The notes: generated by a model from the sequence alone, not told the origin. DNA of 64,000 nucleotides from Candidatus Poribacteria bacterium (GCA_965205025.1 CBDBFU010000018.1:1-64000), one strand, 5' to 3'. Positions 6,061-61,814 are shown, numbered from the stretch's first letter. Made by a program: numbers and translations.

Positions 6061-6600
6061 TCCAAACCAACGGTATGAATGCTATTTAGCATTCCCCGTG
6101 GTTAGGAAACCGCACCATAGTCATCAATTTAAGGATACACATTTCACCCCTCTGGGGCTTTGTTGGTGGGTTTACCGTTTTCTACAACCTTTCGCCCCTC
6201 GAATCATTGAAGTACTTTCTTTGTGTAAAATTAGTGTGTATTACAGACAGAAATACAACTATCCTTGAAGATATAATACCAATTTTACTTAAGTAGTTTA
6301 CATTAATAGCAAATCGGATAAGTTAATTTAGATCAAAGGGATTCTATAAACATTCCGTCCCTACGGGACTCATTTTATGTAGAGGTGAGTATTCTATAGA
6401 CATTCCGTCCCTACCAAATCAACGGTATGAATGCCATTTAGGCATTCCCCGGGACTCATTTATACCATTTCTAACAATGTTTATCCCATCAACATTTGTC
6501 ATGTAAGCTTGAAATACTGCACAAACTGGAAGTTTGTGCTACATTTAAGAGACTTTGATTGTCAAAAATGGTATAAGATCGGAGATCGGAATCCCCTCAT
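6061..6600. repeat. Mosaic of REP-like hairpins, 35-bp elements (6065-6098, 6417-6451) and an ATACCA-ended MITE (~6461-6574)
   Basis: GGTTAGGAAACCGCACC, CACCCCTCTGGGGC, CCGTCCCTACGGGAC and TGCACAAACTGGAAGTTTGTGCTAC motifs recur throughout the window. Confidence 0.8.
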
Positions 6601-6614
6601 ACAGAAGAGAAGAT

Positions 6615-7514
6615 CTATGAACTGAGATCTGGAAAACGTAGAAACCTTTTAGCATTTCCACCCATAATGTCTTCTAATTCTGATTCTCGGAGATTCGGCA
6701 TGAGTTTTTCAATTATTGTTGTCAACTCTTCATAACCTGGTTCCTCTAAAATCCACGGGTAATCTGTTGCCCACATCACCCTTTTCGATCCAAAATCGTT
6801 GAATAGATTATTATGCATTCCTGCCAAATTCGTATAGGGGTAAGGTTCCTTACTAAATGCATATTGCCCGGAAAGATGAACAGTGACATTTTCATATCGA
6901 GCCAATCGGAATGTCGTGTGCATATTTAGATTATAACCCCCAATCTGAATCTGCGGTCTACCCAGTTCGTCTTGTGTGAATTTGCCCTTCCCAGGTGTCA
7001 TACCCAGATGATTTAAGACGACTCGAACCTGCGGAAATTCCTCTACCAAAAACGGAAGTAGATGTGCGTCAATTGATCTTGGATATACCCACATGACATA
7101 ATCTTTTTCTGCGGCACATTTCCAAATTGGGTATGTCCTGAATTCTGTAACATCTTTTGTTTCGAAAATATCGCGAGGTCCCCCAAGATCAAACAATCGG
7201 AAACCAATTATACCCGTTCCTTCTGCCAATTCTGTCATGTGTTCTTCTGGATTAGGATGATCTTGTGGTACAAGTCCAATTCCGAGAAATCTATCTGGAT
7301 AGGTCTTGAGACAATGAAGTAAATAACTGTGTTGTTCTATTGTGCTTCCACCAATCTGTACGAGTACAGCCTGATCCACACCATTATTCTCCATTAATCC
7401 CAATAGTTTTTCGGCTGATTCATCTCTATCAGCTGGTGTGTTGGATGATACTTCACGTGGGAATTCATCTGATTCCGTCGTAAATACATGAACATGTGCA
7501 TCAATTACCGGCAT
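6615..7514 (-). CDS. Amidohydrolase_2 family metal-dependent hydrolase
   Basis: IDAHVH, LNHLG and VMWATDYP motifs. Confidence 0.9.
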   Translation of the reverse strand: MPVIDAHVHVFTTESDEFPREVSSNTPADRDESAEKLLGLMENNGVDQAVLVQIGGSTIEQHSYLLHCLKTYPDRFLGIGLVPQDHPNPEEHMTELAEGTGIIGFRLFDLGGPRDIFETKDVTEFRTYPIWKCAAEKDYVMWVYPRSIDAHLLPFLVEEFPQVRVVLNHLGMTPGKGKFTQDELGRPQIQIGGYNLNMHTTFRLARYENVTVHLSGQYAFSKEPYPYTNLAGMHNNLFNDFGSKRVMWATDYPWILEEPGYEELTTIIEKLMPNLRESELEDIMGGNAKRFLRFPDLSS

Positions 7515-7534
7515 TTCAACATTTCCTTATATTA

Positions 7535-7895
7535 ACGTGAGTTTGATAACTCAGATTTTATATTCGAATCAAGAAATCAACGGTATGAATGCTATTTAGC
7601 ATTCCCGTGGTTAGGAAACCGCACCATAGGGGTCAATTTAGGGATACACCTTTCGCCCCGCTGGGGCTTAGGTTTAGTGGTTTAGTACGTGTTCTACACA
7701 CCTTTCGCCCCGCTGGGGCTTAGGATATTGGCGATAACGATTTCTATAAACATTCCGTCCCTACGGGACTCAAGATAGTGGATAAACACGTTTTCTATAG
7801 ACATTCCGTCCCTACGGGACTCACAAATGTGTATATGATAATCCCTGTTTCAGATTAGTCATAATGTAAACCAATAAATTGAAAATGGTATTATA
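7535..7895. repeat. REP/MITE mosaic with a 35-bp element (7575-7607)
   Basis: ACGTGAGTTTGATAA end, 2x CACCTTTCGCCCCGCTGGGGCTT, 2x ACATTCCGTCCCTACGGGACTCA. Confidence 0.8.
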
Positions 7896-7943
7896 TTAAT
7901 ATTTCCTATGTAACAGGGTTGTAGATTATATAAACAGATATGG

Positions 7944-8663
7944 TTACGCATCTAAGCTAAATATTTTGCGACGTGCTGGTGTATTACAGTGTTCTGCAAT
8001 GGATGCAAATTGTGTTGGTCCCACACGTCCAGGCGTGCGTTTCTCATAGATAAGTATGATAGACTTCCGGGGTGTATCTGAGGAATTATCCATTGAGGTA
8101 TGCCAACCACAGGAATTAAACATTATCGCTGTACCTGCCTTTCCAGGAAAACTTTTATGTCCCGGCATACTCTCTTGTAATAAGGGACGTTTATAGGGAC
8201 CAGACCCGTGTCTATGACTTCCCGGTACAAAGCCAAACTCCCCACCGCCTTTAGGGACATCATTAACATATATCTGTACCTTAATATGTATAGGATTATC
8301 TTTACCAACATCTGGATGCCATCCGGTATAACTTACTGGCCACGGTGCAACAGTTCTTACTTGAGGTCCGAGTAGGATTACATCGTCATCTGTGAATTCC
8401 ATCAATGCTCCGTAATAACTCGGATGATCTATGATGTCAATAAAAATAGTGTCTTTCTCAAGCGGATTTGGAATATCATAGAATGTTGCAGCTGCATCTG
8501 CTGTTTCAACCCTTTCCAACCATTCTTCCTTACATTCATCTGCCCAAAAATCAAATGCAGTTTGGAGACGTTTTAATTGTTCACCTTGGATTGCATTTTC
8601 AAAAACGAGATATCCGTCACGTTCCCACTGTTCTTTTTCTTCAGGTGTTGGTCTATTCATCAT
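7944..8663 (-). CDS. PhyH family dioxygenase
   Basis: WERDGYLVFENA, GWHPD, FVPGSH and GWH motifs. Confidence 0.88.
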   Translation of the reverse strand: MMNRPTPEEKEQWERDGYLVFENAIQGEQLKRLQTAFDFWADECKEEWLERVETADAAATFYDIPNPLEKDTIFIDIIDHPSYYGALMEFTDDDVILLGPQVRTVAPWPVSYTGWHPDVGKDNPIHIKVQIYVNDVPKGGGEFGFVPGSHRHGSGPYKRPLLQESMPGHKSFPGKAGTAIMFNSCGWHTSMDNSSDTPRKSIILIYEKRTPGRVGPTQFASIAEHCNTPARRKIFSLDA

Positions 8664-9703: not shown

Positions 9704-9876
9704 AGAAATTTCTCCTATAAAGTTCGTAATACTTTATCTATTGTGAAGTTTCGTGTCAAGACATTTAATCCTAATATACAGAGAAAATAAGGGATAAAAA
9801 ACAGACATTTAATCCTAAATACTCAGACAGTGGATCGGGTTGTTGTAGCATGAGTCTATGTGTCGAAAAAATGAAA

Positions 9877-9910
9877 AAAGTTACACTTTTTGTCACATCG
9901 TGTGACATTG
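9877..9910 (-). repeat. 34-bp TGTCACA-NNN-TGTGACA-AAAAG-TGTAAC motif, copy 1
   Basis: Reverse complement matches 34926-34959 at 33/34 positions. Confidence 0.75.
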
Positions 9911-10577
9911 AAATTGTCGTAAATTACCCCTATAACCCTTGTCATAGACTGGGTTTATAGTAGTTTTAACTTGATTTATAAGAATTTCAAAAAAGTGTGA
10001 TTTTGTGTTTTTGTTGTGCTTCCTGAATTTGGCATTTCCAACCGTTAAAAAGGTACGGTTTTTTGACGTATATAAGATTTCGTAATTAGGATCAATTTTA
10101 TAGATAGTCATTGGTTTTTAGTTTTTAGTTTTATAAATATTATACGATATAGTATTGTGTAATTTTATTGTTATTTTGACAAATATTATTTATATGTTTT
10201 TCTGTTTTTGTGATATATGTATGTTAGATGTTAGAGGTGGGTGTTTTCTTCATTTTTTTTCAATTTTATTCGAAAATAGTTTGTTTCGCATTATTTGATG
10301 CTTGTTAATGCGATACACTCTACACCCGCGAAGGTATTTCCAGAAGCATTCGGTTGTCCAGTCTAACCGATATTATAGCATTAACATATCATACCAATTT
10401 TACTTAATTAGTTTACATTAATAGCAGATCAGAAAAGCCAGTTTAGTTTAAATCGTATTCTATAAACATTCCGTCCCTACCAAATCAAGAAACAAGGAAT
10501 CAAGGAATCAACGGTATGAATGACATTTAGTCATTCCCCGGGTATGAATGCCATAAATCAACGGTATGAATGACATA

Positions 10578-10721
10578 TGAAGATTAATTTTTAAATTCGG
10601 CAATTTTGAAGAAAGGTCCAAATCAACGGTATGAATGCTATTTAGCATTCCCCGTGGTTAGGAAACCGCACCTACCGGGTTTGGGAAAATTAGAATTACC
10701 GAAATATTTTCTTAATCTTCA
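10578..10721. mobile_element. IS630-derived MITE (144 bp) with TA duplication
   Basis: Ends TGAAGATTAATTTTTAAATTCGGCAA / TTACCGAAATATTTTCTTAATCTTCA match the TIRs of the IS630 at 60399-61640; flanked by TA. Confidence 0.85.
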
Positions 10722-10873
10722 TAAGTCATTCCCCGGGACTCAAGATAGTGGATAAACGCGTTTTCTATAGACATAGCACTCCGCTGGAGTGCGAGAATGT
10801 ACCGATCATGTTTCTATAGACATAGCACTCCGCTGGAGTGCGGGAATACCCGGATCATGTTTCTATAGACATA

Positions 10874-11214
10874 ACGTGAGTTTGATAAGACACATTTTAA
10901 CCCAAACTTTTAGTTAACCCCAGAGTGTACAAACTGGAAAGTTTGTGCTACAAAGACTATCTTCAGGACAAAATTCTGTTTATCGAACTGACATTTTTAA
11001 TTATCAAACTGACGTTAGACATAGCACTCCGCTGGAGTGCGGGAATACCCGGATCATGTTTCTATGGACATAACGTGAGTTTGATAAGACACATTTTACC
11101 CCAAACTTTTAGTTAACCCCAGAGTGCACAAACTGGAAAGTTTGTGCTACAAAGACTATCTTCAGGACAAAATTCTGTTTATCGAACTGACATTTTTAAT
11201 TATCAAACTGACGT
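10874..11214. mobile_element. Two tandem MITE copies (10874-11015, 11073-11214) with ACGTGAGTTTGATAA TIRs, IS982-like
   Basis: TIRs ACGTGAGTTTGATAA / TTATCAAACTGACGT; TSD TAGACATA; family assignment is inference. Confidence 0.75.
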
Positions 11215-11258
11215 TAGACATAGCACTCCACTGGAGTGCGAGAATGTACCGAATTCAG

Positions 11259-17748: not shown

Positions 17749-18380
17749 ACGTGAGTTTGATAATAGGTAAATAAACTTCATTCTTTAAAGAATATTACTC
17801 CTATAGACCCGGTAGGTGGTGTTTCCCGGGGAATGCCATAAGGCGTACATACCGTTGATTCACCGCACTATAGGCGTCAATTTAAGGAACACCTTTCGCC
17901 CCGCTGGGGCTTAGCGACAGGGCTGCAACGTTTTCTACACACCTTTCGCCCCGCTGGGGCTGTTAATATGTATTACATCTGGTTTTTTATATCTCTGACG
18001 CACCAAATCAACGTTGAAGTAGGTTGAACAAAGCCAGAAGAGACGACAAGGGTAGTAATTACACTAACGTCACCCACTAAATTGACGCTATGAGTCCCGT
18101 AGGGACGGAATGTTTATAGCAAAAATAGAACCCACAGTATTGAGTCCCATAGGGACGGAATGTCTATATTCTTTTTGGACATAAAGATGGAAGTAGACTC
18201 ATCCTTCAAATCATAAAGTGAATTGTACTAATACCATTTCTAAATAATGATCGTCCATTATTAATTAAAGAAACCCCCTAAAGAATCAACGGTATGAATG
18301 CCTTAGGGCATTCCCCGCCCCTTATCAGGGGGACCACTAAGAGTATTCATAATGTGAACTATTTAAATAGAATTGGTATA
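17749..18380. repeat. REP/MITE mosaic with 35-bp elements (17827-17860 minus, 18284-18317 plus)
   Basis: GCGTCAATTTA/TAAATTGACGC-ended unit ~17873-18090; ATACCA-ended unit ~18231-18379; several REP hairpins. Confidence 0.8.
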
Positions 18381-19521: not shown

Positions 19522-19985
19522 ATGGTAGGTGCGGTTTCCTAACCGCACTATAGGCGTCAATTTAGTGGTTTTCCCAGGCCGGTAGGTGCGATTTCCTAAT
19601 CGCACCATAGGCATCAATTTAGGATACACCTTTCGCCCCGCTGGGGCTTAGTGTTTTGTGTTTATTACGTTTTCTACAAACCTTTCGCCCCGCTGGGGCT
19701 TGGGATATTGGTGATAACCACTTCTATAGACATTCCGTCCCTACCAAATCAACGGTATGAATGCCATTTAGGCATTCCCCGGGACTCAAAACCAATAAAT
19801 CATAGTCTAAATTGACGCTAATAGTGCGATTTCCTAATCGCACTGGATCCTTCGCGAAAAACTTTATGAACGCAATTGGAACAAACCCGGTTCGGTTAGG
19901 AAACCGAACCTACCGACCTGAAATTTATAGCGTACTTCTCCTTAAATTGGCGCTAATGGTGCGGTTTCCTAACCGCACCGGATCC
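19522..19985. repeat. REP/MITE mosaic with a 35-bp element (19747-19781)
   Basis: 5x GTGCG(G/A)TTTCCTAA(C/T)CGCAC-type hairpins, 2x CGCCCCGCTGGGGC, GCGTCAATTTA ends. Confidence 0.8.
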
Positions 19986-25745: not shown

Positions 25746-25989
25746 AAGAATAGATCGTCTGTGATGCGAATACATCTACACGTTAGATTGAATCATACTA
25801 ATAGTATAAGTCCTATGGTCATTTGATACAAACTATAAGTAACATTTCTATATAAACATGGAAAGTAAGTATTTCAAACAAAAGATGTTGAGGTCATAGT
25901 CGCTTGTGTCTTAAGAATATAACCGCACTATAGATGTCAATTTAGTTCACTGCAGTAATGGTAGCTTCGGTTTCCCGGGGAACGCCTAA

Positions 25990-26131
25990 TGAAGATTAAA
26001 ATAATAATTCGGTAATGTGTTAGAAATTCGAATCAACGGTATGAATGCTATATAGCATTCCCCGTGGTTAGGAAACCGAACCTACCAAGTTTGGGAAAAT
26101 GGGAATTGCCGAATTTAAAACTTAATCCTCA
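25990..26131. mobile_element. IS630-derived MITE (142 bp) inside a 35-bp element (25976-26153), carrying an internal 35-bp element (26031-26064)
   Basis: Ends TGAAGATTAAAATAATAATTCGGTAA / TTGCCGAATTTAAAACTTAATCCTCA; interior homologous to 10578-10721. Confidence 0.8.
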
Positions 26132-26208
26132 TAAGGCGTTCATACCGTTGATTCCCGAGCCGAATTTTCAGCATTGACAGAAAATCTTGCAGACAATAAC
26201 CTTAGATC

Positions 26209-35165: not shown

Positions 35166-38100
35166 ATGCATTTGAGGAATTATATGAGGATCCAGAGATA
35201 TATAGTTGTACTTTTACTGGTATTATGGAGTAATATTTCTCTTAGTTATGCTGCAGAAGGTAAAAAGACATTAGGTTTATCGGAAGCTGCAATACAGATC
35301 CGAGATGAACTCTCCATCCGAAACATTCGTAAAGACCTTGCCCGATTATCCAGCCTTCAAAGCCGAGTTACCGGCTACCCACAGGCAGCAAATGGTAGTA
35401 AATATATATTTGATCGCTTCGTTGAAATGGGATTACAGAACGTTGAAAGTCGTGAATTCTCTGTAACCGTTCCAATTGATCATGGTAATAGCGGTATTGA
35501 CGTTATTTCCACTGATGGTTCTATATTACATTCCTTCCCTCTAAGACCTTTATGGCCTAATCTGGTCAGAACATCTTTACTTACAGATGGGATCAAACAT
35601 ACAGTTGAAGTCGGTGAAACCCTTCAAGAGATAGCAGATAACTATGCTGTACCATTAACTGAAATCCAACAAAATACACATAATCAACACCTTCCAACAC
35701 CCGTTGTTGAAGGGAATGTTGTTTTTATTCCAACAGGTGGACTCACCGGTCAATTAATCTATGCCGGTAATTCTCAACTGTCAGATTTTAATGGCAGAAA
35801 TGTAGGTGGCTTTTGGTATCCCTTACAAGATGGAGATACACTCGTTTCATTAGCAAGACGTTACCGTGTCACCCAAGCCAGCATAACTGATGATGTGCTT
35901 AACGGACATCTTCAGAAAGCTTCTGATGGAATTGATAATGATGAAGATGGAATAGTTGATGAATACGGTGAAATTCCGTTGCTCTCAGAAATACTTGGAT
36001 GGGCGACAGACGGTATTGACAATAACGCTGATGGATGGACTGATGAAGTTCCTGGGGATGACACAGATGGCATTGATAACAATAGAGATGGTCAAATTGA
36101 TGAAGCCGATGAATTTGTTGCTGCAAGTGAGTCTCATATCTTTATACCGAAAGGGGCTATTATCCTCGCTGATTTTAACTCCGGTACACGCTGGATTAAT
36201 GCTGCAATGCTCGGTGCATCTGCCGTCATTTTTATTGAACCAGAAACAACTATACGTGGTGAAGCAGAAAACAAATTCCTTACTGTTCCAGCAAATATAC
36301 CCCGATTTTGGATTTCAAAACAGGATGCAACTGAAATAAGAAATCTCCTGGACACAGAAGCACAAGTAAACGTTCAACTACATGGGAAGATGACTTGGGA
36401 ACGCCGTGTTGGACAGAATATACGAGGATTCTTGGAAGGTGCGGATCCTGTATTACGGGATGAATTAGTCGTATTAACTGCGTATTATGACTCTATGTCT
36501 GTAGTGCCGGCACTTTCTCCTGGGGCTGATCCTACGTGTGGAATTGCAGTGTTAATGGAGATTGCTCGGTTATTTAGTCTACCGCAATACCGTCCTGGAC
36601 GATCCGTCCTATTCGTTGCCGTTGATGCACACTTCCAAGGCTTAGCAGGAATGCGTGCATTCATGGAGGGTATTGGTCAAGATATCGTCGGAACCACAAC
36701 CGATTCTCCAGGAACACCAACCTTACACGGGTTGAGACGAGGATTATCTAACGATATTATTGAGTTCGAAGAATTAGGTCGTAAACTACTTCTCTCAATT
36801 GATCGCAGCATTTTAGTTGACCTTGACGCAACTTTCTATCACGGTTTACACGGTATACGTGAAGACCTCGAATCGCTTGAGATTACTCTTGAAGGACTTT
36901 CTACCACCCGTTCTCAAATTGATTCTCTACATACAGCACAACGGGATTTTTCTGAACGTCAAAAAAAGCAGGCTGACCGTAGCAGAAAACGCGAAAAACA
37001 AGGATTTACAGAAGAAGAGAAATCAAGACTTAATGCTAACCTCGTTCGTTTTGAGAAAGAAGCACTTCAAACTACACACTTCCTAAGAGACATTGTTAGT
37101 AGACTCGGTCAAATTAGAACATTGGCATTGGATACAAGTAGAGATGCACAACGTGATCTGATTGAGAGTATTGCATTACCAATTGCAAGATTAGATACTT
37201 GGGCGATTGATAAGTTGAATAGAGAACTTGAAACAGATGAAATTGGTGACTCGTATGGCACACATCCTAATACTTCCTACCTTCTACCAGTTAAGTCTGG
37301 ATCGGATTACAATGTACCAACACCAGATGATCTCCCATCAGAATTGGTCGCAGATATCGAAATGCTCAATAAGACATTGGCTAATTGGGAAATGAGCGAC
37401 CAGAGAAAGTTCGCATTGATGTGGACTCCGGATAAAATTCTGGACCGACATTTGGATTTACCCTCCCTAAAAGATGCACGAAAGGCACGTAAAGTTCTTG
37501 CCAACACTGACGAACCTATGGAAGAGGCAATATCAAGAGAACGAGTATTGCTACAAAAAATCAGAGACAACCTTAAAGACAGCAATGCTATTGAGCAACA
37601 AATAAAAACTGCTATCACGAAATTGCGTGATGATCAAGAATACAATCTCCCAAACGAAATCCAAAACCAATATCTAACAGACACATCAAAAGATCGAATC
37701 GAAACAGTTAATGCTCAACTACGCCAACGTCTAACTGAAGCAGAAGCAGCTACCGAAACAGAAGGTTTTGATGATTCGTCGACTACTATCCTAATTGAGG
37801 ATTTAACTCGGGACAAGCAAGGTATTTTTGAGATTGCTCTACGGAATGTTCGTTTGGAGGAATCCCGAATTCTGAATCTCATTGATTCCCATGAAACTCT
37901 TACACGAGAATACCTGGATGAAGAATTAATCATACTAAATGGGTACTTAACTAAAGATGAAGTTGAGCAGGTGAAAGAAGCTCGAAAACACATCGCGGCT
38001 TATTTAGTTGAGGCACAAATTCTTGAATCTGTTAAAAACACCGCTGCAGCAGACGTTATTTCCCTTGAAAACCTAATCATTCAACTGCCATCTATAACAC

Positions 38101-41100
38101 GAGATTTAGATGCGCAGACTAAAGTTCTGCTCCGTGATAATATGCTCACTCTGAGAAATGCTCGATTCCGAAATATACAGAGTAGGGTTGAGAAAATGTC
38201 GCGTATAAGTGATATAGAATACAATCACAAACTCGAACAAATTGAAGCTGCTGTAGCATTGCAAGATCTATTCAACCGATACTATACATCTCTATTCTGT
38301 AGTATTGACCTTTCCTCTCAATCCAGTCAGTTTGGCGTCTTTAATAAAGGGTGGTTCTATGACCAGCAGCCTGAGTTTGTATTACGTAGGGAGTTTGCGA
38401 GTATTGGGAATAAACTTGCCGCTTATGCTGCTGATGCAGACTTTGGTGTACGAGTCAGAAAATTGTGGCAAGCCACAGATGACCAAATACGACAAGCTGT
38501 GATGGAACGGCAATGGTCGGTAGCCAGTCAAATCTCTGATAAGGAAGCGCTTGAAGGGAAGACACTTGAAACTCTCCTAAGCGCACATTATGGTAAGCTA
38601 ACGGGTTTAGGTGGTGTCAGTCGTCTGATGAAGATGCAATTTGAGCAGTGGAGAAACCGTGGTGAACCCTCGGAAGACATGCTCAAGGATATGGACTACA
38701 TTCGAAAAGAGGTTGAACGGTTCATCCGTAACGATGTTCGAAGTGCAAAGAAAAACCGTAAGAATAGTATCCGAATGCGTGAACAGTTAGATGCTATGCT
38801 AAGACTACGCCACGAAGACCCAGATACTTTTACAGAGGATGAGATTGAGGATATAAAAACATTAATCTCTATTGTTGGACTCGGTGGTGATACAAACTTC
38901 GTAAATGCTATATCCGCAAGTGGTGGAAAGACATGGAAAACATACATCCCCGGTAAAATCGCATTTGATAGTGAAGTTGCCACACTCGTTGGTAAAACAG
39001 GAATAGCATTTGCAACTATTGAAGATGCTCGCGTTCTCACCGATACACCACTTGATACAATTGATCGTGTGGATCTCCGTGAAGATGGAAATTTACACCA
39101 ACAGGCACAAACATTAGCATCTCTACTGATACAAGCGTTGCGTGACCCACAGATGCCTACCGCAGCACGCGTTGGAAACTTCTATTGTAACCTATTCGGG
39201 GACGTAGTTGAATTTGATGCACGTGAATCCGCTCTTCCCAACAAACCTGTCCCATATCCCATCCTTACGCTCCGACGTAAACACAAATCAATGATGGGGG
39301 TTCGTGGTGATCTATTTGTTATGGGTGATAACAAGGGGAATTTTGCAGTCGCCGGATTAGCCATGGAAGGTAGAGCAACCCGTCGACTTGGTGGTGTACA
39401 GGAAGTTGAAGCTTATATTCTTGATCCCGATTCTGGAGATATTGTCTATGCTCCCGATCTTGGAAATTACGGTGCCAAACTTCTTCCAAATAAGGTATCA
39501 ATCAACACACGCCGACGCGGATGTCGTGTTGTCACATTCCAATGTGTTTCTACGACTATCTACGATTTAGTTGACCAGCGTTACCTACGGACATTACGGG
39601 AATTAGAGGTATATGATGCGTTGTCGGATAGTCCACCAGAAAAATTTGGTGTATCTAAACCGTGGCAACAAGAAGGTGTTTCAGCTGCTGAACCGATTGC
39701 ACTTGTATATAGTGAACCGGAAACTCGTATTAAGATCGGTATGGCATACGGACAAATCGGAAAACGGCTACTCCTTATTAAAGCAACAAAAAGTGGTATG
39801 AAAAACCCTACACTTTATACTGGGGAAGGGTTCGTAGTAAGAGAAAACGGAAGTATTCGATTAACCCCTTATGTCGTTGTACGTGATATGTGGTGGCTTG
39901 ATGAAAACAGGTCACGACTCTATAAAAGGTTTGGTATTTCAAGTGACCGTCTCGACAAATTACATCAATTTGCAAATGAATATCTGACCCGCGCTGAAAC
40001 TGCACTATTCCAAAACGATTACCAACAGGCTCTTAAGTTAGCACGAGCAGCATGGGGATACGAATCTCGTGCTTATCCAGATGTAAAAAGGACAGGTAAT
40101 GATGTTGTAAATGGTATCATGTTCTATCTTGCCTTGCTGATGCCGTTCGCCTATTTTATGGAACGTCTGATATTTGGTTTCCCAAACATTAATAAACAGA
40201 TTTTAGGCACATTTGGTATTTTCCTTGTTGTCTTTTACTTCCTCAGTCAGGTCCATCCTGCATTCCAGATTACAACAACACCAATTATCATTCTCATTGC
40301 CTTTGTTGTTCTTGCCTTGACAGTGATTGTAATTAGTATTATCGTAAGAAAATTCGAGGAACAACTTGAGAAAATACGCCAGCAGGGTAACAAAGTATAC
40401 AAAGCCGACGTGGGTAGATTGAGTGCAAGTGCCGCTGCATTTAGCCTCGGTATTTCTAATATGCGGAAACGAAAAGGACGTACCATTCTCACCTGTGCCA
40501 CATTGGTTATACTTACATTTACTGTTATATCATTTACATCTGTGCGGACATTTATGCATCCAAACCGTACAAGTCTGCCACAGGTTACACCCCGTTACAC
40601 CGGATTACTCATCCGAGACCAATATTGGCGTCCACTTGAAGAACCCGTTCTAAACTCAATTCTCAATGATATGCAGAAAACACAAATTACTGTTGATGAT
40701 TTAGAACGTCTTCTCAGACAGAAAAACCAACTTCTGGTGAAACAAGGGCAAACGGAAATAGATATACCTGCAGCCATTGCACAATTAGAACAGAATGGAT
40801 TTATTGTTAATGTTGATGAAGAACCCATTCTCGCAGTTAAGAATGTTGTAGCACCGCGTTCTTGGTATCAATCTTCAGGAACAGGTGATCAGTCCTTTGT
40901 ACAACTAACGCGTAGCGCAAATTCAGAAGATACATCACCACCAACACATCCACTTACGGGTGAAGATTTACGTTTTGCTGCTAATATGCTTGTCGGTATG
41001 AGTGAAGCGGAACCTTCAGTTACAGGTATTGATCGTTATCTCCAATATGGAAAATGGTTCGATCGTGAAGATGCTGCAAATTGGCCGACAGATTGGCCCT

Positions 41101-42467
41101 ATGCAATTGTGTTACCAAAAGGTATGGCAGACTTATTAAAAATCACTGAAAGCGACATGGGTAAAGCAACTATCTCTGTTTATGGTGCTGACTTCACTGT
41201 TGTAGGTGTATTAGGGATCGGATTCAAGGATTTAACCGATAATGACGGTGAGGAACTCACACCTGTAGATTACCAGTTAATGCAACAGCAGCAGAGCCGC
41301 GGTGGAACAGGTGATGAAACGCTTGAAGGTGAACTTCAGAAATATCTCCATCTCACACCAGATAGCATCGCTATTTTGCCTTATGAAGTTGTAATGAACC
41401 AAGGTGGTACACTTAGAAGTGTTGCTGTCAACATGGAACCTCAAGAGGATGATCCCACACTATTAGGCGCAATTGATAAACTTGATCTCATCATGGCACC
41501 ATTAATGAACCGTATCGCACTTGATTTCTTTGTGGGTCGTGACAAAGATACCTACCTATACAGCAGTATCGGTATGACAAGTTTCAGTGGTATGGGGAAC
41601 CTATTCGTCCCGATTTTGATAGCTGCCTTGATTGTGTTGAATACGATGCTCGGGGCAGTTTATGAACGAGTACGGGAAATTGGAATCTATAGTTCTGTTG
41701 GACTTGCTCCTATCCATATTGCCTTCCTATTCCTCGCTGAAGCATGTGTATATGCCATTGTCGGTGCAGTATTAGGATATCTCATGGGACAGGTCATCGC
41801 TACGACATTAGTACATTTTGGATGGCTTGCAGGATTGACACTCAACTACTCTTCAATGTCTACGGTTGTGGCTACAGTAATTGTCATGATCGTTGTGCTG
41901 CTTAGCACACTATATCCTGCAATAAAAGCCTCTCGTATGGCGGTACCAGATATTGAACGGAAATGGAAGCTACCTGAACCTGAAGGTGATGTGTGGCATT
42001 TCAATTTACCTTTCACTGTCTTAGCCGAAGAAGCCTTAGGGTTAAATGTATTCATGCGTGATTACTTTGATGCACACGCTGATGAATCTGCAAGTGATTT
42101 CTACACTGATAATGTCGCCTTTAGAACTGTTGAGGAAGAGGATTCATTCCAAATTGGTATGATGGTTTGGTTAGCACCTTACGATTTAGGTGTGAGCCAA
42201 TCAATCCAGTTCATTACATCTCCAGTCGGTGGAGAAGAAGAAGATCTCTATAAGATTACATTAGAGGTAAATCGAGAGAGCGGTGAAATAGCCTCTTGGA
42301 AACGTGTTAATCGACGATTTCTTAATCTGTTACGTAAACAGTTGCTTATTTGGCGTACATTTAGTGTTGATATCCGGGCGGAATTCCATGAACGTGGTAG
42401 AACAGAAAGTGACGATATACCTGAAGAATCTCCACAATTGGAGCCAGTACCAACTACAGCAGATTAG
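35166..42467 (+). CDS. Giant M28-peptidase-like/PA/LysM/coiled-coil protein fused to an FtsX/MacB-type ABC permease
   Basis: Signal peptide; SRVTGY; two LysM; three DGIDN repeats; VVLTAYYDS...GAD; DTPLDT; TM bundle; SNMRKRKGRT; LNTMLGAVYERVREIGI. Confidence 0.8.
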   Translation: MHLRNYMRIQRYIVVLLLVLWSNISLSYAAEGKKTLGLSEAAIQIRDELSIRNIRKDLARLSSLQSRVTGYPQAANGSKYIFDRFVEMGLQNVESREFSVTVPIDHGNSGIDVISTDGSILHSFPLRPLWPNLVRTSLLTDGIKHTVEVGETLQEIADNYAVPLTEIQQNTHNQHLPTPVVEGNVVFIPTGGLTGQLIYAGNSQLSDFNGRNVGGFWYPLQDGDTLVSLARRYRVTQASITDDVLNGHLQKASDGIDNDEDGIVDEYGEIPLLSEILGWATDGIDNNADGWTDEVPGDDTDGIDNNRDGQIDEADEFVAASESHIFIPKGAIILADFNSGTRWINAAMLGASAVIFIEPETTIRGEAENKFLTVPANIPRFWISKQDATEIRNLLDTEAQVNVQLHGKMTWERRVGQNIRGFLEGADPVLRDELVVLTAYYDSMSVVPALSPGADPTCGIAVLMEIARLFSLPQYRPGRSVLFVAVDAHFQGLAGMRAFMEGIGQDIVGTTTDSPGTPTLHGLRRGLSNDIIEFEELGRKLLLSIDRSILVDLDATFYHGLHGIREDLESLEITLEGLSTTRSQIDSLHTAQRDFSERQKKQADRSRKREKQGFTEEEKSRLNANLVRFEKEALQTTHFLRDIVSRLGQIRTLALDTSRDAQRDLIESIALPIARLDTWAIDKLNRELETDEIGDSYGTHPNTSYLLPVKSGSDYNVPTPDDLPSELVADIEMLNKTLANWEMSDQRKFALMWTPDKILDRHLDLPSLKDARKARKVLANTDEPMEEAISRERVLLQKIRDNLKDSNAIEQQIKTAITKLRDDQEYNLPNEIQNQYLTDTSKDRIETVNAQLRQRLTEAEAATETEGFDDSSTTILIEDLTRDKQGIFEIALRNVRLEESRILNLIDSHETLTREYLDEELIILNGYLTKDEVEQVKEARKHIAAYLVEAQILESVKNTAAADVISLENLIIQLPSITRDLDAQTKVLLRDNMLTLRNARFRNIQSRVEKMSRISDIEYNHKLEQIEAAVALQDLFNRYYTSLFCSIDLSSQSSQFGVFNKGWFYDQQPEFVLRREFASIGNKLAAYAADADFGVRVRKLWQATDDQIRQAVMERQWSVASQISDKEALEGKTLETLLSAHYGKLTGLGGVSRLMKMQFEQWRNRGEPSEDMLKDMDYIRKEVERFIRNDVRSAKKNRKNSIRMREQLDAMLRLRHEDPDTFTEDEIEDIKTLISIVGLGGDTNFVNAISASGGKTWKTYIPGKIAFDSEVATLVGKTGIAFATIEDARVLTDTPLDTIDRVDLREDGNLHQQAQTLASLLIQALRDPQMPTAARVGNFYCNLFGDVVEFDARESALPNKPVPYPILTLRRKHKSMMGVRGDLFVMGDNKGNFAVAGLAMEGRATRRLGGVQEVEAYILDPDSGDIVYAPDLGNYGAKLLPNKVSINTRRRGCRVVTFQCVSTTIYDLVDQRYLRTLRELEVYDALSDSPPEKFGVSKPWQQEGVSAAEPIALVYSEPETRIKIGMAYGQIGKRLLLIKATKSGMKNPTLYTGEGFVVRENGSIRLTPYVVVRDMWWLDENRSRLYKRFGISSDRLDKLHQFANEYLTRAETALFQNDYQQALKLARAAWGYESRAYPDVKRTGNDVVNGIMFYLALLMPFAYFMERLIFGFPNINKQILGTFGIFLVVFYFLSQVHPAFQITTTPIIILIAFVVLALTVIVISIIVRKFEEQLEKIRQQGNKVYKADVGRLSASAAAFSLGISNMRKRKGRTILTCATLVILTFTVISFTSVRTFMHPNRTSLPQVTPRYTGLLIRDQYWRPLEEPVLNSILNDMQKTQITVDDLERLLRQKNQLLVKQGQTEIDIPAAIAQLEQNGFIVNVDEEPILAVKNVVAPRSWYQSSGTGDQSFVQLTRSANSEDTSPPTHPLTGEDLRFAANMLVGMSEAEPSVTGIDRYLQYGKWFDREDAANWPTDWPYAIVLPKGMADLLKITESDMGKATISVYGADFTVVGVLGIGFKDLTDNDGEELTPVDYQLMQQQQSRGGTGDETLEGELQKYLHLTPDSIAILPYEVVMNQGGTLRSVAVNMEPQEDDPTLLGAIDKLDLIMAPLMNRIALDFFVGRDKDTYLYSSIGMTSFSGMGNLFVPILIAALIVLNTMLGAVYERVREIGIYSSVGLAPIHIAFLFLAEACVYAIVGAVLGYLMGQVIATTLVHFGWLAGLTLNYSSMSTVVATVIVMIVVLLSTLYPAIKASRMAVPDIERKWKLPEPEGDVWHFNLPFTVLAEEALGLNVFMRDYFDAHADESASDFYTDNVAFRTVEEEDSFQIGMMVWLAPYDLGVSQSIQFITSPVGGEEEDLYKITLEVNRESGEIASWKRVNRRFLNLLRKQLLIWRTFSVDIRAEFHERGRTESDDIPEESPQLEPVPTTAD

Positions 42468-53089: not shown

Positions 53090-53199
53090 AATAACTTCTT
53101 ATCACATGAGATAACTTAATTAGTAGCAATACGAACTATAGTCACCGATTACAATTTTCATATTATCTTTTAGTCCTTCAGGAAATATACTCTATGAAT

Positions 53200-54339
53200 T
53201 TACTTCTTGATCTGCCCCCATTGGGTTGACATTTTCCCCGCAGGATCAACGGCTAATGTTCGATTTAGCCAATTCGGTTCACCATCATAACTTGGATGAT
53301 TTGTGATATTTACAATTTTATGTGTATTAAGATGGTATCTATAAATATCCGAATTACCTCCCCAACGTTCTGGGGAAGCTGCGAATATAATTTCTTTACT
53401 ATTCGGGGACCATCCTGTACCTAAAGCGAATGACCATTCTTCTGGAATTGTCAATTTCGGTATATCAAAACCGTCAACACTGATGATAACCAATCTATCC
53501 TTTTTACCTAAAATTAGGTTAATAATAAAGGGGATAACATTGGGATTCTGATTAGCATTGGCTATTACATCCGCAAAACTAAGCTCATGATACAAAATAT
53601 ATTTCCCATTTGGGGACCAACGAGGACGATTCTTTATGATACTAAGTTCAGGGGGTGTTAAAGGCTTAGTCACCTCTCTCTTAACATCCATTATATAGAT
53701 GGTTTGCCCTCTTCGGGGAGTACTTTGTTCGTAGGCAATATATCTCCCATCTGGTGACCAGGATGGTTCATTTGCCGTACCATCAAGAGGTCTGTTGTCA
53801 GTCATTTGTCTTACTTTACCACTAAAGATGTCAAGGATATGGATTTCATTCCTTCCTGAACGATTGCTTGTGAATGCAATGTGCTCTCCATCTGGTGACC
53901 ATGCTGGACTACCGTCTCGTGCGGGATGATCCGTGAGATTTCGCTGGTTATCACCATCAGCATCCATAAGGATAATATCGAATTGTTTCCCCTTAATATC
54001 CGCATCTACATCTCTTGTAAAGGCAATTTGTTTCCCATCCGGTGACCAGACAGGACTTTTTTCAAAAAACTGATTATCTGTTAATCTTTGGATATCGCTT
54101 CCATTGTCGTCCATCACATATATTTCGCGAGTGCCATCCCGTGAAGATGTAAATACAATTTTTGCTTGGGCAACAACAGAAATTAATAACATCAGTATTA
54201 TGACTATACATTTATGATAATTGAGCATAGATAATTGTGGATGGTTCATAATTCTCCCAAATGAGATATCAAAGTGACTATTTATGTTTGATGAAAAGGA
54301 TGATGGACTTATCAGGTACAGATGGGATTTCTTTCTCAA
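53200..54339 (-). CDS. TolB-like PD40/WD40 beta-propeller protein
   Basis: Repeated PxWSPDG; AVDPAGKMSTQWGQIK tail; real start is probably downstream (near 54249 or 54228). Confidence 0.85.
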   Translation of the reverse strand: MRKKSHLYLISPSSFSSNINSHFDISFGRIMNHPQLSMLNYHKCIVIILMLLISVVAQAKIVFTSSRDGTREIYVMDDNGSDIQRLTDNQFFEKSPVWSPDGKQIAFTRDVDADIKGKQFDIILMDADGDNQRNLTDHPARDGSPAWSPDGEHIAFTSNRSGRNEIHILDIFSGKVRQMTDNRPLDGTANEPSWSPDGRYIAYEQSTPRRGQTIYIMDVKREVTKPLTPPELSIIKNRPRWSPNGKYILYHELSFADVIANANQNPNVIPFIINLILGKKDRLVIISVDGFDIPKLTIPEEWSFALGTGWSPNSKEIIFAASPERWGGNSDIYRYHLNTHKIVNITNHPSYDGEPNWLNRTLAVDPAGKMSTQWGQIKK

Positions 54340-54388
54340 TTTCCTGTAAGTATACTGAAACTAAAAAATAAATAGACACTTTTACCCT

Positions 54389-54455
54389 CTGGTAGGTTCG
54401 GTTTCCCGGGGAATGCCTAAATGGCGTTCATACCGTTGATTCACCGAACCGGCAC
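54389..54455. repeat. GTAG-REP interrupted by a 35-bp element (54407-54441, minus)
   Basis: GGTAGGTTCGGTTTCC-[element]-CACCGAACC; the intact form is at 19889-19914 on the opposite strand. Confidence 0.8.
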
Positions 54456-54492
54456 AGAGCGTCCTATTGATTCTAAACTCTACTATAAATAT

Positions 54493-55431: not shown

Positions 55432-55442
55432 TTTTCTCTCCT

Positions 55443-56447: not shown

Positions 56448-56609
56448 TTATTTCTCCATAATTATCACCCTACATACAATGTCAATGGGTGTATAAATTG
56501 TTTTCTACAAGTAATTTATGCAATTCAAATGATTAACTTTTCATCCTAAGAAGCCTTGAGATCAAGGGTAGAGACCACTTTAATTCCTTAAGCGAAATTC
56601 ATGTTTGGT

Positions 56610-57477: not shown

Positions 57478-57499
57478 AAGTTTGACTAACCAAAAATAT

Positions 57500-57675
57500 T
57501 ACTAACGGATTTTGATCATTTCAACACAGTTTTCAGACTCTTTCCTCACCCCGGTGAATGACCTAATGTCATTCATACCGTTGATTCGAGGGGTGATATG
57601 TCTATAGAAAATGGTATATCAACACCCTGCACTCCAGCGGAGTGCTATGTAAGTAAATAGGTGGAACTTGAGTTA
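57500..57675. repeat. IS-free paralog of the composite element at 60321-61750, containing a 35-bp element (57552-57586, minus)
   Basis: TACTAACGGATTTTGAT...CCTCACCCCGGTGAATGACC|TGTCATTCATACCGTTGATTCGAGGGGTGATATGTCTATAG is shared with the IS630 flanks. Confidence 0.85.
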
Positions 57676-59064: not shown

Positions 59065-59187
59065 TATATTCTCCTATTTATTTTTTCAAATTCTTAATTA
59101 TTTCAAGTCAATAGCCAATGAAAGTTGTGTTATTGAATCTATTTATTGGATGTAGGTATTCATATATTGGTCGTTTTCCGTTTCAAA

Positions 59188-60282
59188 TTAACCTTCAAGA
59201 GTTGCTTCATATACTTGTGAAAAACCACATCTATCGGATGTAAACACGACATGTTTTCCATCAGGACTAAATGATGGATGTGGATGTGTATGTTGCGGTG
59301 CATATACAGTTATGGGACCATCAGCATACGGAAAAGGTCCATTCCAATGTTCACCGATTGATGATGCGTATGGGAAACACAATGTTTCCGGTTCACCTAT
59401 GCCATCACGTGGATCGAATAACTGTATGCCAATATCTGGAAAGTTAGTATCCGCAACCATGAGTGTTCCTTGTCTATTAGAAATAGCATGCCATGCGTTA
59501 ATGGTTGTAACCTGCCGTACCTCTTTAGTATCAGCATTGACACATCTTACACCACGGTTCCAATCTACAAAAGCAAGTTCACGGGTTCCGGGAATCCAAG
59601 TCTCGTGAGTGATCCACTCATTTTCTTCTTCATTCCGTTCATAGAGCCGTCGGTTTCCTGTACCATCCCTATTTATTACCCAGACTCGATCTGTCAGCGG
59701 ACCAGCATAATACAGTAAGTCTGCATCATCAGGACAGAATTGGAGATGGGCAATACTGTCTCTTCTTAAAATAACCTCATTTTCACCAGTTTCAGCGTTG
59801 ATAATATTCAGAGCGACTTCGTCACCTACCCGATAACGAACTGCCCACCATTTATCATCATGACTAAGTGCAGTTGTTCCCATAGCTGCTGCAACCATAC
59901 CCTTATCTTGCATTTCTGTCGCAACGAAGTTTACGAGTTCTCGCTCTTCAAGTGTAACTAAATCAAGCCTCCATCCGCTTGTTCCAGCAGTAAAAAAGAC
60001 GGCTTCACCATTCCAAGAAGGATGAACAGACCATTCACTCAAATCGGGTCTGTCAGTGAGTTGAATTAACTCTCCTGTTTCGCGGTCTTCAGCGAAAATC
60101 TGTGATGACCCGGTCCGATATGAGACAAAAAAGAGTCTCTTCATCATATTGTCATAGGCAGGTATTATGAAGAATGGATGATGATGTAAGGCACATGCAG
60201 TCGTAACCTGACGGATATGTGTACCTGTTCTTCTATCATAAAAAGAACGTGATTCAGATGAAGAAACTGTTCCTTTTGCCAT
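59188..60282 (-). CDS. Oligogalacturonate-lyase-like beta-propeller protein
   Basis: IRQVT...HHHPFF, AHLQFCP, ITHETW, WH and THPHPSFSPDG motifs. Confidence 0.75.
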   Translation of the reverse strand: MAKGTVSSSESRSFYDRRTGTHIRQVTTACALHHHPFFIIPAYDNMMKRLFFVSYRTGSSQIFAEDRETGELIQLTDRPDLSEWSVHPSWNGEAVFFTAGTSGWRLDLVTLEERELVNFVATEMQDKGMVAAAMGTTALSHDDKWWAVRYRVGDEVALNIINAETGENEVILRRDSIAHLQFCPDDADLLYYAGPLTDRVWVINRDGTGNRRLYERNEEENEWITHETWIPGTRELAFVDWNRGVRCVNADTKEVRQVTTINAWHAISNRQGTLMVADTNFPDIGIQLFDPRDGIGEPETLCFPYASSIGEHWNGPFPYADGPITVYAPQHTHPHPSFSPDGKHVVFTSDRCGFSQVYEATLEG

Positions 60283-60398
60283 ATTTAATTACAAACGTAT
60301 AACAGACATCTCCTTATATAACCTAAGTTGCTACTAACGGATTTTGATAGTTTCAACACAGTTTTTCAGACACTTTCCTCACCCCGGTGAATGACCTA

Positions 60399-61640
60399 TG
60401 AAGATTAATTTTTTAATTCGGTAATAATCCGATCTGGCGTAGCAGCATCTGTGATCCTCCTATGAACTGCGACATAAAAAAACTAATCACCTTGTCTTTC
60501 ACGATTTCCCAATCATCGCAATGACGATGGTTATGTAAAACCGATTGACGCACCCATCGCCATAACTTTTCAATCGGGTTCGTCCACGGCGCATAAGTCG
60601 GTAGTTGTATTATCTCAATCGGAAGTTTTTGTAGTGTTCCGATTTTCTCTGAGGGTTTACCTGTCCAATTCGGTGGCTTCGGTTTCACAAACGATGCTGT
60701 TTGCGGGAGAAGTGCTTCCAATAAGTTAGCTTGAAAGTGGGTTGACCAATTGTCTTGTATCAAATATATCCGTTGCTTGTTTGCGTAGCGTTGGCAAATC
60801 TCGGTGTAAAAAGAATGAAGTGCTTCAGCAGTGCAGCGTGAAACTTGCTGGTAAACAACATCTCCAGTATGTGGGTTCAGAGCCCCGATCCCATAGCACG
60901 TTTGGTTGTGTCTGTAGCTCTGACGGGCTAAAGGTGTTTTCGTGCCTGTTTGTGCCCAGTCTTTTGCTATGGTAGGGTTGCGATAAAACGAGAACTCATC
61001 TTGGTAAAGCGCAACACAGGTCTGTGGATGTTGACGGGTCTCTTCCAAAACTTGCTGGACCCTGTCTATTTTTTGGGCATAGTCTGTATCCGGACTATGT
61101 ATGTATAAGCGAGCGCGTTTATAGCTGAGACCGAGTCGACTAAGGATTTTGTGAATACCCGGCACAGACACATCACTGAGCCAAGGGACGATGTTTCCAA
61201 GGGATCGGAGTGTCCATCGTGTTTGATGCGGATTATGTTGTTCAGGTCCCTGTGCGATAGTATTATAGACCTCCGCCTCTGCTTCTTCGGGGGATTTAGG
61301 GGAATAAGCAGGTTTGCGACCACGACCGGGTGTATAGAATAAACCTTGAATACCGTTTTCATTGTATCGGTGAAGCCACGAATAGACCGTATCAGGATCG
61401 CGTTCTTTCAAGAGCATTTTTCGGGCGACTTTGTGAGGGGAAAACCCCTCGCTTATTTTCAAAAGGGCAGCAGCGCGTTCTCGTAGATAAGCCGGTTCGC
61501 CTTTATCACGGAGTTCAACGAGTTTTTGTCGTTCAGTTTCACTGAGTTCAAGTTTATGATGTTTTGCCATGAATAAATACCTCCTTGAACAAGAGGATAG
61601 CACAAAAATAAAATTTACCGAATTAAAAAATTAATCTTCA
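60399..61640 (-). mobile_element. IS630-family insertion sequence
   Basis: Perfect 26-bp TIR TGAAGATTAATTTTTTAATTCGGTAA; TA duplication at 60397-98 and 61641-42. Confidence 0.95.
60413..61603 (-). CDS. IS630-family DDE transposase
   Basis: HTH, GRGRKP, YQDE, IQDN and LPTYAPWTNPIE motifs; uninterrupted ORF; start probably at MAKHH (61570). Confidence 0.93.
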   Translation of the reverse strand: MLSSCSRRYLFMAKHHKLELSETERQKLVELRDKGEPAYLRERAAALLKISEGFSPHKVARKMLLKERDPDTVYSWLHRYNENGIQGLFYTPGRGRKPAYSPKSPEEAEAEVYNTIAQGPEQHNPHQTRWTLRSLGNIVPWLSDVSVPGIHKILSRLGLSYKRARLYIHSPDTDYAQKIDRVQQVLEETRQHPQTCVALYQDEFSFYRNPTIAKDWAQTGTKTPLARQSYRHNQTCYGIGALNPHTGDVVYQQVSRCTAEALHSFYTEICQRYANKQRIYLIQDNWSTHFQANLLEALLPQTASFVKPKPPNWTGKPSEKIGTLQKLPIEIIQLPTYAPWTNPIEKLWRWVRQSVLHNHRHCDDWEIVKDKVISFFMSQFIGGSQMLLRQIGLLPN

Positions 61641-61814
61641 TATGTCATTCATACCGTTGATTCGAGGGGTGATATGTCTATAGAAAAAGATGTATCAAAA
61701 TCCTGCACTCCAGCGGAGTGCCATGTAAGTGATTAGATGGCAACTTGGGTTATATAGTAAACCTCATAGTCATGATACAGTAGCATTCATTGGGAAGCAT
61801 ACCGACTTAATCAA

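Follow-up and report, generated by a model that had tools for sequence, protein, structure and literature searches.

A very small non-coding hairpin element lodged in palindromic repeats of Candidatus Poribacteria

The DNA analysed here, called the window, is a stretch of 64,000 nt from a Candidatus Poribacteria genome (GCA_965205025.1, CBDBFU010000018.1:1-64000), whose intergenic regions carry copies of a short hairpin sequence, hereafter element E. A search for the head of E (AATCAACGGTATGAA) allowing up to two mismatches returned 14 matches in the window, as against a mean of 0.30 and a maximum of 3 in 100 shuffles; the matches coincide with the 14 sites at which an initial annotation of this DNA had placed about 14 copies of a ~35-bp hairpin. 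Eleven copies are complete, each 33-35 nt long, and three are split in the loop, with heads at 10556(+), 26153(-) and 61662(-). In the assembly as a whole (5.66 Mb, 33 contigs) the head is found 312 times with up to two mismatches and 275 times with up to one, 250 of the 275 being exact, and the 3' half is present with 227 of the 312. The reversed head word yields a single match in the same genome, compared to 275 for the true head (up to one mismatch). All copies in the window are intergenic, and genome-wide only 2 of the 275 fall within long open reading frames (ORFs). These data confirm that E is a real, very small, non-coding element.

The copies in the window are given below together with the repeats that harbour them. 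These include repetitive extragenic palindromes (REPs), sorted here into host types designated H, and miniature inverted-repeat transposable elements (MITEs) of the IS630 type; a caret marks the point at which E interrupts a host.

6065..6098, plus strand: E copy of 34 nt with one change in the tail (AACCAAC), followed by TGGTTAGGAAACCGCACC, the fixed composite context H5
6353..6369, plus strand: intact H1 REP TTCCGTCCCTACGGGAC, with more intact copies at 7753-7769 and 7804-7820
6417..6451, plus strand: E copy of 35 nt in H1, between the loop TAC and the arm GGGAC, with CA at the left junction
7575..7607, plus strand: E copy of 33 nt, its 3' end one C short, in an H5-type context
10480..10505, plus strand: run of 5' stubs (AATCAAGA, AACAAGG, AATCAAGG) after an H1 left arm
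10506..10540, plus strand: E copy of 35 nt, the innermost in a nested array
10541..10555, plus strand: GGTATGAATGCCATA, the 5' half of the hairpin of an outer E that took the next copy into its loop
10556..10735, plus strand: E split in the loop by a ~150-bp IS630-type MITE (about 10577-10724)
10621..10654, plus strand: E copy carried as a passenger within that MITE, variant TGCTATTTAGCA
10725-10735, plus strand: 3' half of the split E, then the H1 right arm
17827..17860, minus strand: E copy of 34 nt occupying the loop of a GTAG-tagged REP of H3 type
18142..18160, minus strand: empty H1 REP GAGTCCCATAGGGACGGAA, empty also in locus L002 and filled in the orthologue from genome G018 (locus L003)
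18284..18317, plus strand: E copy of 34 nt in H4 (CCCCCTAAAG^CCCCTTATCAGGGGG), part of a ~130-bp insertion absent from loci L001-L003
19747..19781, plus strand: E copy of 35 nt in an H1 REP
19889..19910, plus strand: intact H3 REP GGTTCGGTTAGGAAACCGAACC
25976..26153, minus strand: E split in the loop by a ~148-bp IS630-type MITE (about 25987-26132), with the head at 26139-26153 and the 3' half at 25976-25986
26031..26064, plus strand: E copy carried as a passenger within that MITE
54407..54441, minus strand: E copy of 35 nt in an H3 REP (GGTTCGGTG^GGAAACCGAACC)
57552..57586, minus strand: E copy of 35 nt with the 3' end CATTCACCG, in an H2-type REP (CACCCCTCG^GGGGTG)
60385..61662, minus strand: E split in the loop by a complete insertion sequence (IS) of the IS630 family, with the head at 61648-61662 and the 3' half at 60385-60395
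60396..61641, minus strand: the IS630-family IS, ~1.25 kb, with a transposase ORF at 60413-61603

All 14 sites of the initial annotation belong to E, but those at 25976 and 60385 are detached 3' halves of split copies; the minus-strand sites at 17827, 54407 and 57552 had been listed by their low coordinate. The intact CCGTCCCTAC^GGGAC hosts are borne out by the H1 repeats at 6353, 7753 and 7804, and some other host details are corrected here. The intact H3 announced at 19889 exists but reads GGTTCGGTTAGGAAACCGAACC, so that TA is lost on filling; likewise, the CCCCCTAAA host, which when intact is CCCCCTAAATCCCCCTTATCAGGGG, loses TC. The window has no match in Rfam, and E has none among the PLSDB plasmids. 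Viral contigs were rejected as carriers, since a 17-mer occurs in five of them and the 3' half in none, as expected of chance matches.

Read from its 5' end, E comprises a variable G, CA or A, the tail AATCAAC, GG, TAT and the first strand of a 7-bp stem (GAAYRNN), followed by a loop of 3-5 nt, NNYRTTC, C or A, and CCG. The conserved tail is unpaired, and a basal stem is formed by CGG/CCG around the unpaired TAT. As single-stranded DNA, either strand folds into a hairpin at -7 to -9 kcal/mol (z -2.5 to -4.5), and within H1 the host stem still closes around E (-10.7 kcal/mol). Covariation was assessed in 227 copies retrieved by two outer anchors only. Stem position 4 is T-A in 200 and C-G in 20; position 6 is C-G in 188, A-T in 20 and T-A in 5; position 7 is C-G in 140 and T-A in 76. 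Among 84 distinct sequences, 304 of the 336 variable cells are paired, where 1000 shuffles give a mean of 260 and a maximum of 274. These data show that the E hairpin is maintained through compensatory changes at distal stem positions. G-T pairs are rare in the stem (0-4 per position). On the tail strand, the mismatched stem cells include 19 of the C-A/A-C and 9 of the G-T/T-G kind.

As initially stated, no terminal inverted repeats (TIRs) or target-site duplications (TSDs) are seen at the E junctions. Nor do the ends of E (AATCAAC... and ...CATTCCCCG) match those of a known IS, an eventuality that the annotation had raised: they are unlike the ends ATGAAGATTAA... of the IS630-type elements that split E, and no duplication accompanies them. 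A looser scan for hairpin units gave 699 matches, compared to 371 in the reversed sequence; its real units comprise 222 with the tail and 45 directly after another hairpin, and the scan revealed no other recurrent upstream context with E-type stems. Some sequences share the tail, in the form (CC)AAATCAAC, and have other stems, for example AATCAACGCCGAATGCGCG... and AATCAACACCGAATACC... (this genome, G000; L003; L058/L062; L107). These tail-sharing relatives sit at the same H1/H2 junctions and take E into their loops; they are few here (6 of one type).

Taken over the whole genome, the claim that each copy interrupts another palindrome is confirmed in a wider sense: the flanks are nearly always repeated. 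Among 222 complete E arrays, the 40-nt flank recurs more than five times on the left in 186 and on the right in 197, and both flanks are unique in 3. The hosts are H1 (TTCCGTCCC-TAC-GGGAC; ratio of intact to filled 170:30), H2 (TTCGCCCC-GCT-GGGGC; 114:43), H3 (GGTTCGGT-TAGG-AAACCGAACC; 73:about 20), H4 (CCCCCTAAATC-CCCCTTATCAGGGG; 42:16) and H6 (the foot of H3 on its 3' side); E is also hosted at two positions inside an IS630-type MITE and by E itself. Orientation relative to the host is indeed fixed, at 30:0 for H1 (CCGTCCCTAC^GGGAC), 43:0 for H2 (CGCCCCGC^GGGGC) and 21:0 for H3 (GGTTCGGT^GGAAACCGAACC). Upon filling, CA is added to H1, whose loop stays whole, while H2 is left without its loop T, H3 without TA, H4 without TC and H6 without A; the small host losses noted at the outset amount to 1-5 nt across hosts. 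The 3' end of E always reads ...CCCG, and GG comes next in about half of the arrays.

These junctions are varied. Eight contexts have been named and 112 different 7+7-nt junction pairs counted; the 4-mers on the left vary widely (ggtg 24, acca 24, ttcg 24, cgcg 21 and aaag 16 are among them), and in other species E occupies yet other host hairpins, in or beside the loop. As to the possibility, foreseen in the annotation, that copies exist only in fixed composites, independent junctions exist, yet about one quarter to one third of the copies do ride in fixed composites. The proposed recognition by hairpin structure rather than by sequence is plausible, as insertions are found at stem/loop or stem/base junctions. 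Unrelated IS630-type MITEs share this target, however, with 237 of 294 ends at hairpin arms, so that hairpin tips may simply be accessible.

E also inserts into itself. While 152 of the 222 arrays are plain, 46 contain extra hairpins (45 of these also with stubs) and 24 contain stubs only. The layout of a nested array is host-AATCAAGG-AATCAAGG-AATCAACGG...CCCCG-GGTATGAA...CCCCG-GGTATGAA...CCCCG-host. Outer copies are cut in two: their heads make up the 8-nt stubs upstream, their bodies the hairpins downstream. The point of self-insertion is fixed between AATCAA and GG (GGTATGAA downstream), the C at that place being lost. Inner and outer hairpins are usually of different variants: the 20 commonest pairs are nearly all distinct combinations, and GAACGCC variants, inner in 8 arrays, are missing from the outer list. 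Since the members of a pair differ, E must have entered E repeatedly at one point. Stub runs outnumber hairpins in some arrays, which implicates slippage of the 8-nt unit as well; the stubs at 10480..10505 in the window are heads of outer interrupted copies and/or slippage products. In 6-7 cases E lies inside its own loop. Close pairs (up to 400 nt apart) are direct in 66 of 72 cases in this genome and inverted in 6 of 72. In the relative G017, two sites (C1:745467-745509 and 2156242-2156284; L129, L130) are perfect long palindromes whose arms consist of the E 5' half plus the left side of the host. They resemble snap-back (strand-switch) copies with their centre in the E loop. Inverted pairs of E heads occur in more complex nested forms at loci L125-L128 of G013.

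The search of relatives proposed in the initial annotation found the head throughout the genus and in most of its sister genus. The exact 15-mer is present in 39 of 39 genomes of the same genus, at 1-498 copies, and in 61 of 65 genomes of the sister genus, at 0-258 copies (reversed-word controls in genomes of the family, 0-1). It is absent from all 7 genomes of four other genera of the family, and in 16 genomes of three other families matches with up to one mismatch stay at the control level. Head counts on the two strands are lopsided in some sister-genus genomes (7/48 in G094, 2/17 in G105, 0/13 in G127). In JGI metagenomes, the best relative has 60% protein identity.

The nearest species share 83-92% gene identity with this genome, and most intergenic DNA cannot be aligned. 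Comparison of 225 kb of G018 (contig 31) with this genome provided 38 collinear gaps, of which 4 hold E only here, 1 holds it only in G018 and 1 holds it in both; none has it at the same site. The proposed check of orthologous empty sites brought to light one empty/filled REP: where the H1 REP at 18142-18160 is empty here and in L002, the G018 locus L003 has a 70-nt insert exactly at the H1 junction, made up of a tail-sharing relative with E in its loop. Other differences between species are gains or losses of whole composites, such as the ~130-bp H4 unit with E. In two sequencing runs that contain the stretch (shares 0.87 and 0.79), no differing letters appear in the long pieces listed. That E is a site selected for its benefit to the host (for example protein binding, RNA processing or a termination signal) and not mobile is most improbable. 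Its conserved head, its intergenic location and its orientation bias with respect to genes would suit such a site, but its positions are unconserved between species with ~90% gene identity, its copy number runs from 0 to 498, its copies sit within other selfish repeats and within each other, and Rfam has no match.

A parent of E was sought throughout the genome as a head with its matching 3' half within 6 kb. The initial annotation had thought it worthwhile to look for long copies that flank a transposase; these do exist, but they are IS630 elements inserted in the E loop and no parent is among them. The interrupters are IS630-type MITEs of 105-401 nt, a 1.25-kb IS630-family IS in 4 copies (plus 1 without the matched half), and a decayed, frame-broken IS630-type IS of ~0.9 kb located at TA in an E loop (G000 contig 28: 30553-31463). 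The window ORF at 60413-61603 encodes an IS630-family transposase (DDE_3, 80.6 bits; transpos_IS630, 180.6 bits with a cut-off of 100). This IS was rejected as the parent: it is a separate element within the E loop and its ends are unlike E. No small nuclease gene lies between E halves. Among 294 IS630-type ends, 155 lie at CACAAACT..AGTTTGTG hairpin halves, 69 at E halves and 13 at H3 arms. The base preceding the end is T in only 111 of the 294, so IS630 targeting looks structural rather than TA-based. Two further ideas were abandoned. The symmetric forms suggestive of E as a 21-nt TA-flanked IS630 mini-MITE also mirror-duplicate the host arms, and, in a search for a master copy in low-copy genomes, the copy common to G003 and G020 was found in repeat-filled intergenic DNA with no telling gene.

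The initial annotation had named HUH/Y1, IS110-like and reverse transcriptase (RT)-primed engines. This genome, 95% complete, yielded no RVT_1, IS110 or TnpB-type domain. Y1 genes are present, but their flanks are host REPs and not E. Three IS200-like Y1 genes, 97-100% identical, map to contig 27 of G000 (loci L054-L056):

53137-53481, minus strand: IS200-like Y1 gene
72631-72975, plus strand: IS200-like Y1 gene
86996-87340, plus strand: IS200-like Y1 gene

They score 100 bits with Pfam Y1_Tnp and 84 bits with NCBIfam transpos_IS200 (cut-off 55), and each is flanked on both sides by inverted H1 hairpins. A 52-bp tandem array upstream of them contains as many as five H1 copies, and a 2.2-kb segment is common to two of the loci (98.5% identity). 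As judged by eye, 21 related Y1 loci from 17 other genomes have H1- or H2-like hairpins on their flanks, each lineage its own; with 2 of the 3 loci from this genome, they make up a set of 23 IS200-like Y1 loci with H1/H2-type flanks. A second kind of Y1 gene encodes a classic REP-associated tyrosine transposase, or RAYT (NCBIfam REP_Tyr_transpos, 123 bits; cut-off 80), and GTAG-tagged hairpins of H3 type flank 5 of 6 such loci. Flanking Y1/RAYT genes as they do, H1, H2 and H3 are classical REPs with their own transposases, and E is a guest in them. A GTTGATT close to the Y1 start codon in this genome was discounted, as it is not conserved at Y1 loci of other species.

E runs antisense to the long ORFs on both of its sides in 100 cases, as against 52 in sense; for intact H1 and H2 the ratios are 60:46 and 46:29, and in none of these tallies are the copies independent. 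Together with the C-A/A-C mismatches, the antisense excess hints that the complementary strand may matter, subject to the same non-independence. An RNA-mediated route, in which E would be transcribed and the RNA hairpin copied back by a reverse transcriptase, is said to have been proposed for the small dispersed repeats (SDRs) of cyanobacteria. That analogy and the transcription link suggested by the 100 to 52 bias speak for such a route, but with no RVT_1 match in this genome and so few G-T intermediates in the stem, we regard it as very unlikely for E.

On balance, E is probably a family of non-autonomous mobile hairpins of 33-35 nt, of the REP/SDR kind, restricted to two genera of one Poribacteria family. 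Its placement and exact heads indicate recent movement, as judged from the 250 exact heads among 275, the lack of shared sites with G018, the one empty/filled REP and copy numbers of 1-498. New copies would be made by a strand-specific cut-and-join or copy-and-join reaction on extruded or single-stranded hairpin DNA, with a trans-acting factor reading the conserved tail and the base of the hairpin. Many copies would then have spread further as passengers of their hosts, REPs and IS630-type MITEs, with added recombination and slippage between copies. The tail and the base are kept over ~100 species while the distal stem drifts, which suggests a sequence-specific reader of E; so do its single polarity and its fixed point of self-insertion. 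The absence of TIRs and TSDs, the choice of stem junctions as targets and the small losses fit a reaction on single-stranded or extruded hairpins better than double-strand DDE transposition.

Several observations weigh against this interpretation. No enzyme that would mobilise E was found. E flanks none of the 29 Y1/RAYT loci inspected, the only nearby instance being a one-sided array at L117; the number of Y1 matches per genome bears no relation to that of E copies (Spearman rho -0.01, 40 genomes); and G001, G010 and G023, which are 92-97% complete, hold 112-191 exact copies with no Y1 match. A strand bias such as IS200/IS605-type elements have is not seen: the orientation of E shows no link to local GC skew, and strands are mixed in the first 3 Mb of the complete relative G017 (19+/14-, 15+/20- and 18+/14- per Mb, counted over 100 of the 164 places listed). 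Junctions are unclean, combining the loss of 1-5 host nucleotides with variable nucleotides before the tail (G, CA, A). The base-precise empty/filled orthologous pair is a single one, and its filling is a composite; the contigs of all four sequencing runs are short and end at repeats, none bridging an E copy. Finally, one variant of E tends to dominate in each host (15 of 18 in H1, 11 of 16 in H4, 21 of 23 in the MITE). This link, and the near absence of E from unique DNA, mean that many apparent insertions may be host amplification.

Carried to its limit, the last point would make E a passenger only: a few old insertions amplified with their hosts, the REPs by Y1/RAYT and the MITEs by the IS630 transposase, and reshuffled by recombination. 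The strong association of variants with hosts does indicate that a large share of the copies spread along with them. In addition, two MITE contexts account for 34 of the 222 arrays, the same right junction recurs in ~20 others, H4 and E come and go between species as one ~130-bp unit, the immediate flanks are almost always repeated, and chimeric flanks (H2-left/H1-right in 4 cases, H2-left/H3-right in 2) attest to recombination. Such a history nevertheless seems unlikely to be the whole account. It is at odds with the 46 nested arrays, with their many inner/outer variant pairs and variants seen only as inner copies, with the same geometry in unrelated hairpins of other species, and with an orthologous REP filled in a single species. 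The copies are also equally preserved in genomes that have no Y1 gene, where 82-89% of the heads are exact.

Alternatively, E could be copied into other hairpins with no dedicated enzyme at all, by template switching or by repair synthesis primed from hairpins; this would take place at stalled forks or at breaks in extruded hairpins, under the guidance of G/C microhomology. The 1-5 nt losses and the variable extra nucleotides at the left junction accord with this, as do the succession of CCCCG and GG at the right junction in about half of the arrays, the excess of stubs over hairpins and the 24 stub-only arrays (which fit slippage), the snap-back-like palindromes on the E loop in G017, the complex inverted head pairs in G013, and the presence of an unrelated IS630-type family at hairpin arms (237 of 294 ends). 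Indeed, stubs, chimeric flanks and the G017 palindromes show that the family also owes its form to slippage, recombination and template switching. As the sole origin of E, however, such processes are improbable: the exact 15-mer is kept across ~100 species while the distal stem drifts, orientation is strictly single and the insertion point in E is fixed, and a passive process is not expected to select one sequence and one polarity.

If E is a mobile hairpin as proposed above, a Y1/HUH enzyme of the RAYT kind is the best available candidate engine by anatomy, and enzymes of this type serve the host REPs; co-occurrence and strand tests do not support it, and we consider this part of the proposal possible but rather doubtful. 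A bolder version, which we hold with little confidence, is that E and its tail-sharing relatives form a class of ~35-nt mobile DNA. A widely conserved factor, encoded by the host or by an element, would read the 7-nt tail and the hairpin base and insert E tail first, in one polarity, at the stem junctions of any extruded hairpin. Such a factor would be distinct from Y1/RAYT, DDE, IS110 and RT enzymes, and its mechanism could equal that of the SDRs. If true, an SDR-type mechanism would become testable in a second phylum, in more than 100 genomes with 0-500 copies each.

SDR1-8 of Nostocaceae, said to have been described by Elhai et al. in 2008 (Genome Res 18:1484), are reportedly 21-27 nt long and self-nesting, and reportedly lie in short tandem repeats, in mini-transposons and in another palindrome (SDR5 in HIP1). 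To our knowledge, the SDRs are the only described analogues of E, and how they, and even classical REPs, insert is still unsettled. They are described in brief in PMC5861425 and PMC3116915. E resembles them in being very small, non-coding, lineage-confined and without a known enzyme; in nesting in itself, here in 46 of 222 arrays at one fixed point; in lying amid runs of 8-nt stubs, in IS630-type MITEs and in REP loops; and in a secondary structure kept by compensatory changes. In this comparison by description, E differs in belonging to Poribacteria and in its length (33-35 nt, versus 21-27 nt for SDRs). Its hosts, furthermore, are REPs with identifiable Y1/RAYT genes, and its tandem units are 8-nt copies of its own head. 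By organism and size, E thus appears to be an analogue of the SDRs and not a member.

With REPs, E shares a short imperfect palindrome, an unpaired conserved end, hundreds of intergenic copies, the lack of TIRs and TSDs and an occurrence in repeat mosaics, in a genus with REPtron-like loci. Di Nocera et al. 2013 (PMC3733652) mention REPs "inserted within small palindromes" in some species and give an unpaired GTAG or CGTC tag at one end as a feature of REPs. E lacks either tag: the TAT beside its stem makes GTAT, which the tail-sharing relatives do not even have. No Y1/RAYT gene is flanked by inverted E, the array near L117 being one-sided. The inverted doublets of REP doublets forming hairpins (REPINs) are not a feature of E here, where only 6 of 72 close pairs are inverted, though inverted forms exist in G013 and G017. 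Unlike that of REPs with their RAYTs, the number of E copies shows no tie to Y1 genes; E, moreover, has REPs as its hosts, enters them at a fixed point and in a fixed polarity, and also nests in itself. In short, E has the size, copy number and intergenic location of a REP and departs from REPs in the four features tested, namely tag, cognate gene, doublets and co-occurrence.

Palindrome-associated transposable elements (PATEs), derived from IS200/IS605, likewise have hairpin ends and no TIRs or TSDs, their insertion being made strand-specific by the Y1 enzyme; E differs from them in being a single hairpin, far smaller, with no conserved left tetra- or pentanucleotide and no replication-strand bias. 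IS1397/ISKpn1 and ISPpu9 are reported to be insertion sequences that target REP hairpins. They make the same choice of target as E and the local IS630-type MITEs, the loop region of repeated hairpins; they are coding, however, and the MITEs are bounded by TIRs, while E has neither gene nor TIRs and is itself a target (69 of 294 IS630-type ends). A literature search covering main texts for REP, MITE, REPIN and RAYT found no paper linking Poribacteria with such repeats. The initial view that this is not a described family therefore stands for the sequence, in the literature searched, but the kind itself is known. Here it is linked to a family defined by its sequence, with known hosts and distribution, and three candidate engines have been tested with negative outcomes.

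Because E has no gene and no inverted ends, its spread must rest on what a trans-acting machine reads in ~35 nt. Its anatomy is clear, with a fixed polarity, a fixed point of self-insertion and stub scars, and the ~100 related genomes with 0 to ~500 copies make a comparative search for the responsible factor tractable. On the practical side, short-read assemblies break at each E copy. E repeats fill and quickly remodel the intergenic DNA of Poribacteria, and masking or modelling them is advised in the annotation of promoters, terminators and small RNAs.

Two other features of the window were recorded:

10780-10860: two occurrences of a REP type TTCTATAGACATAGCACTCCGCTGGAGTGC, which resembles the hairpins flanking congener Y1 genes (L102, L112)
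35166-42467: an ORF of 2433 aa

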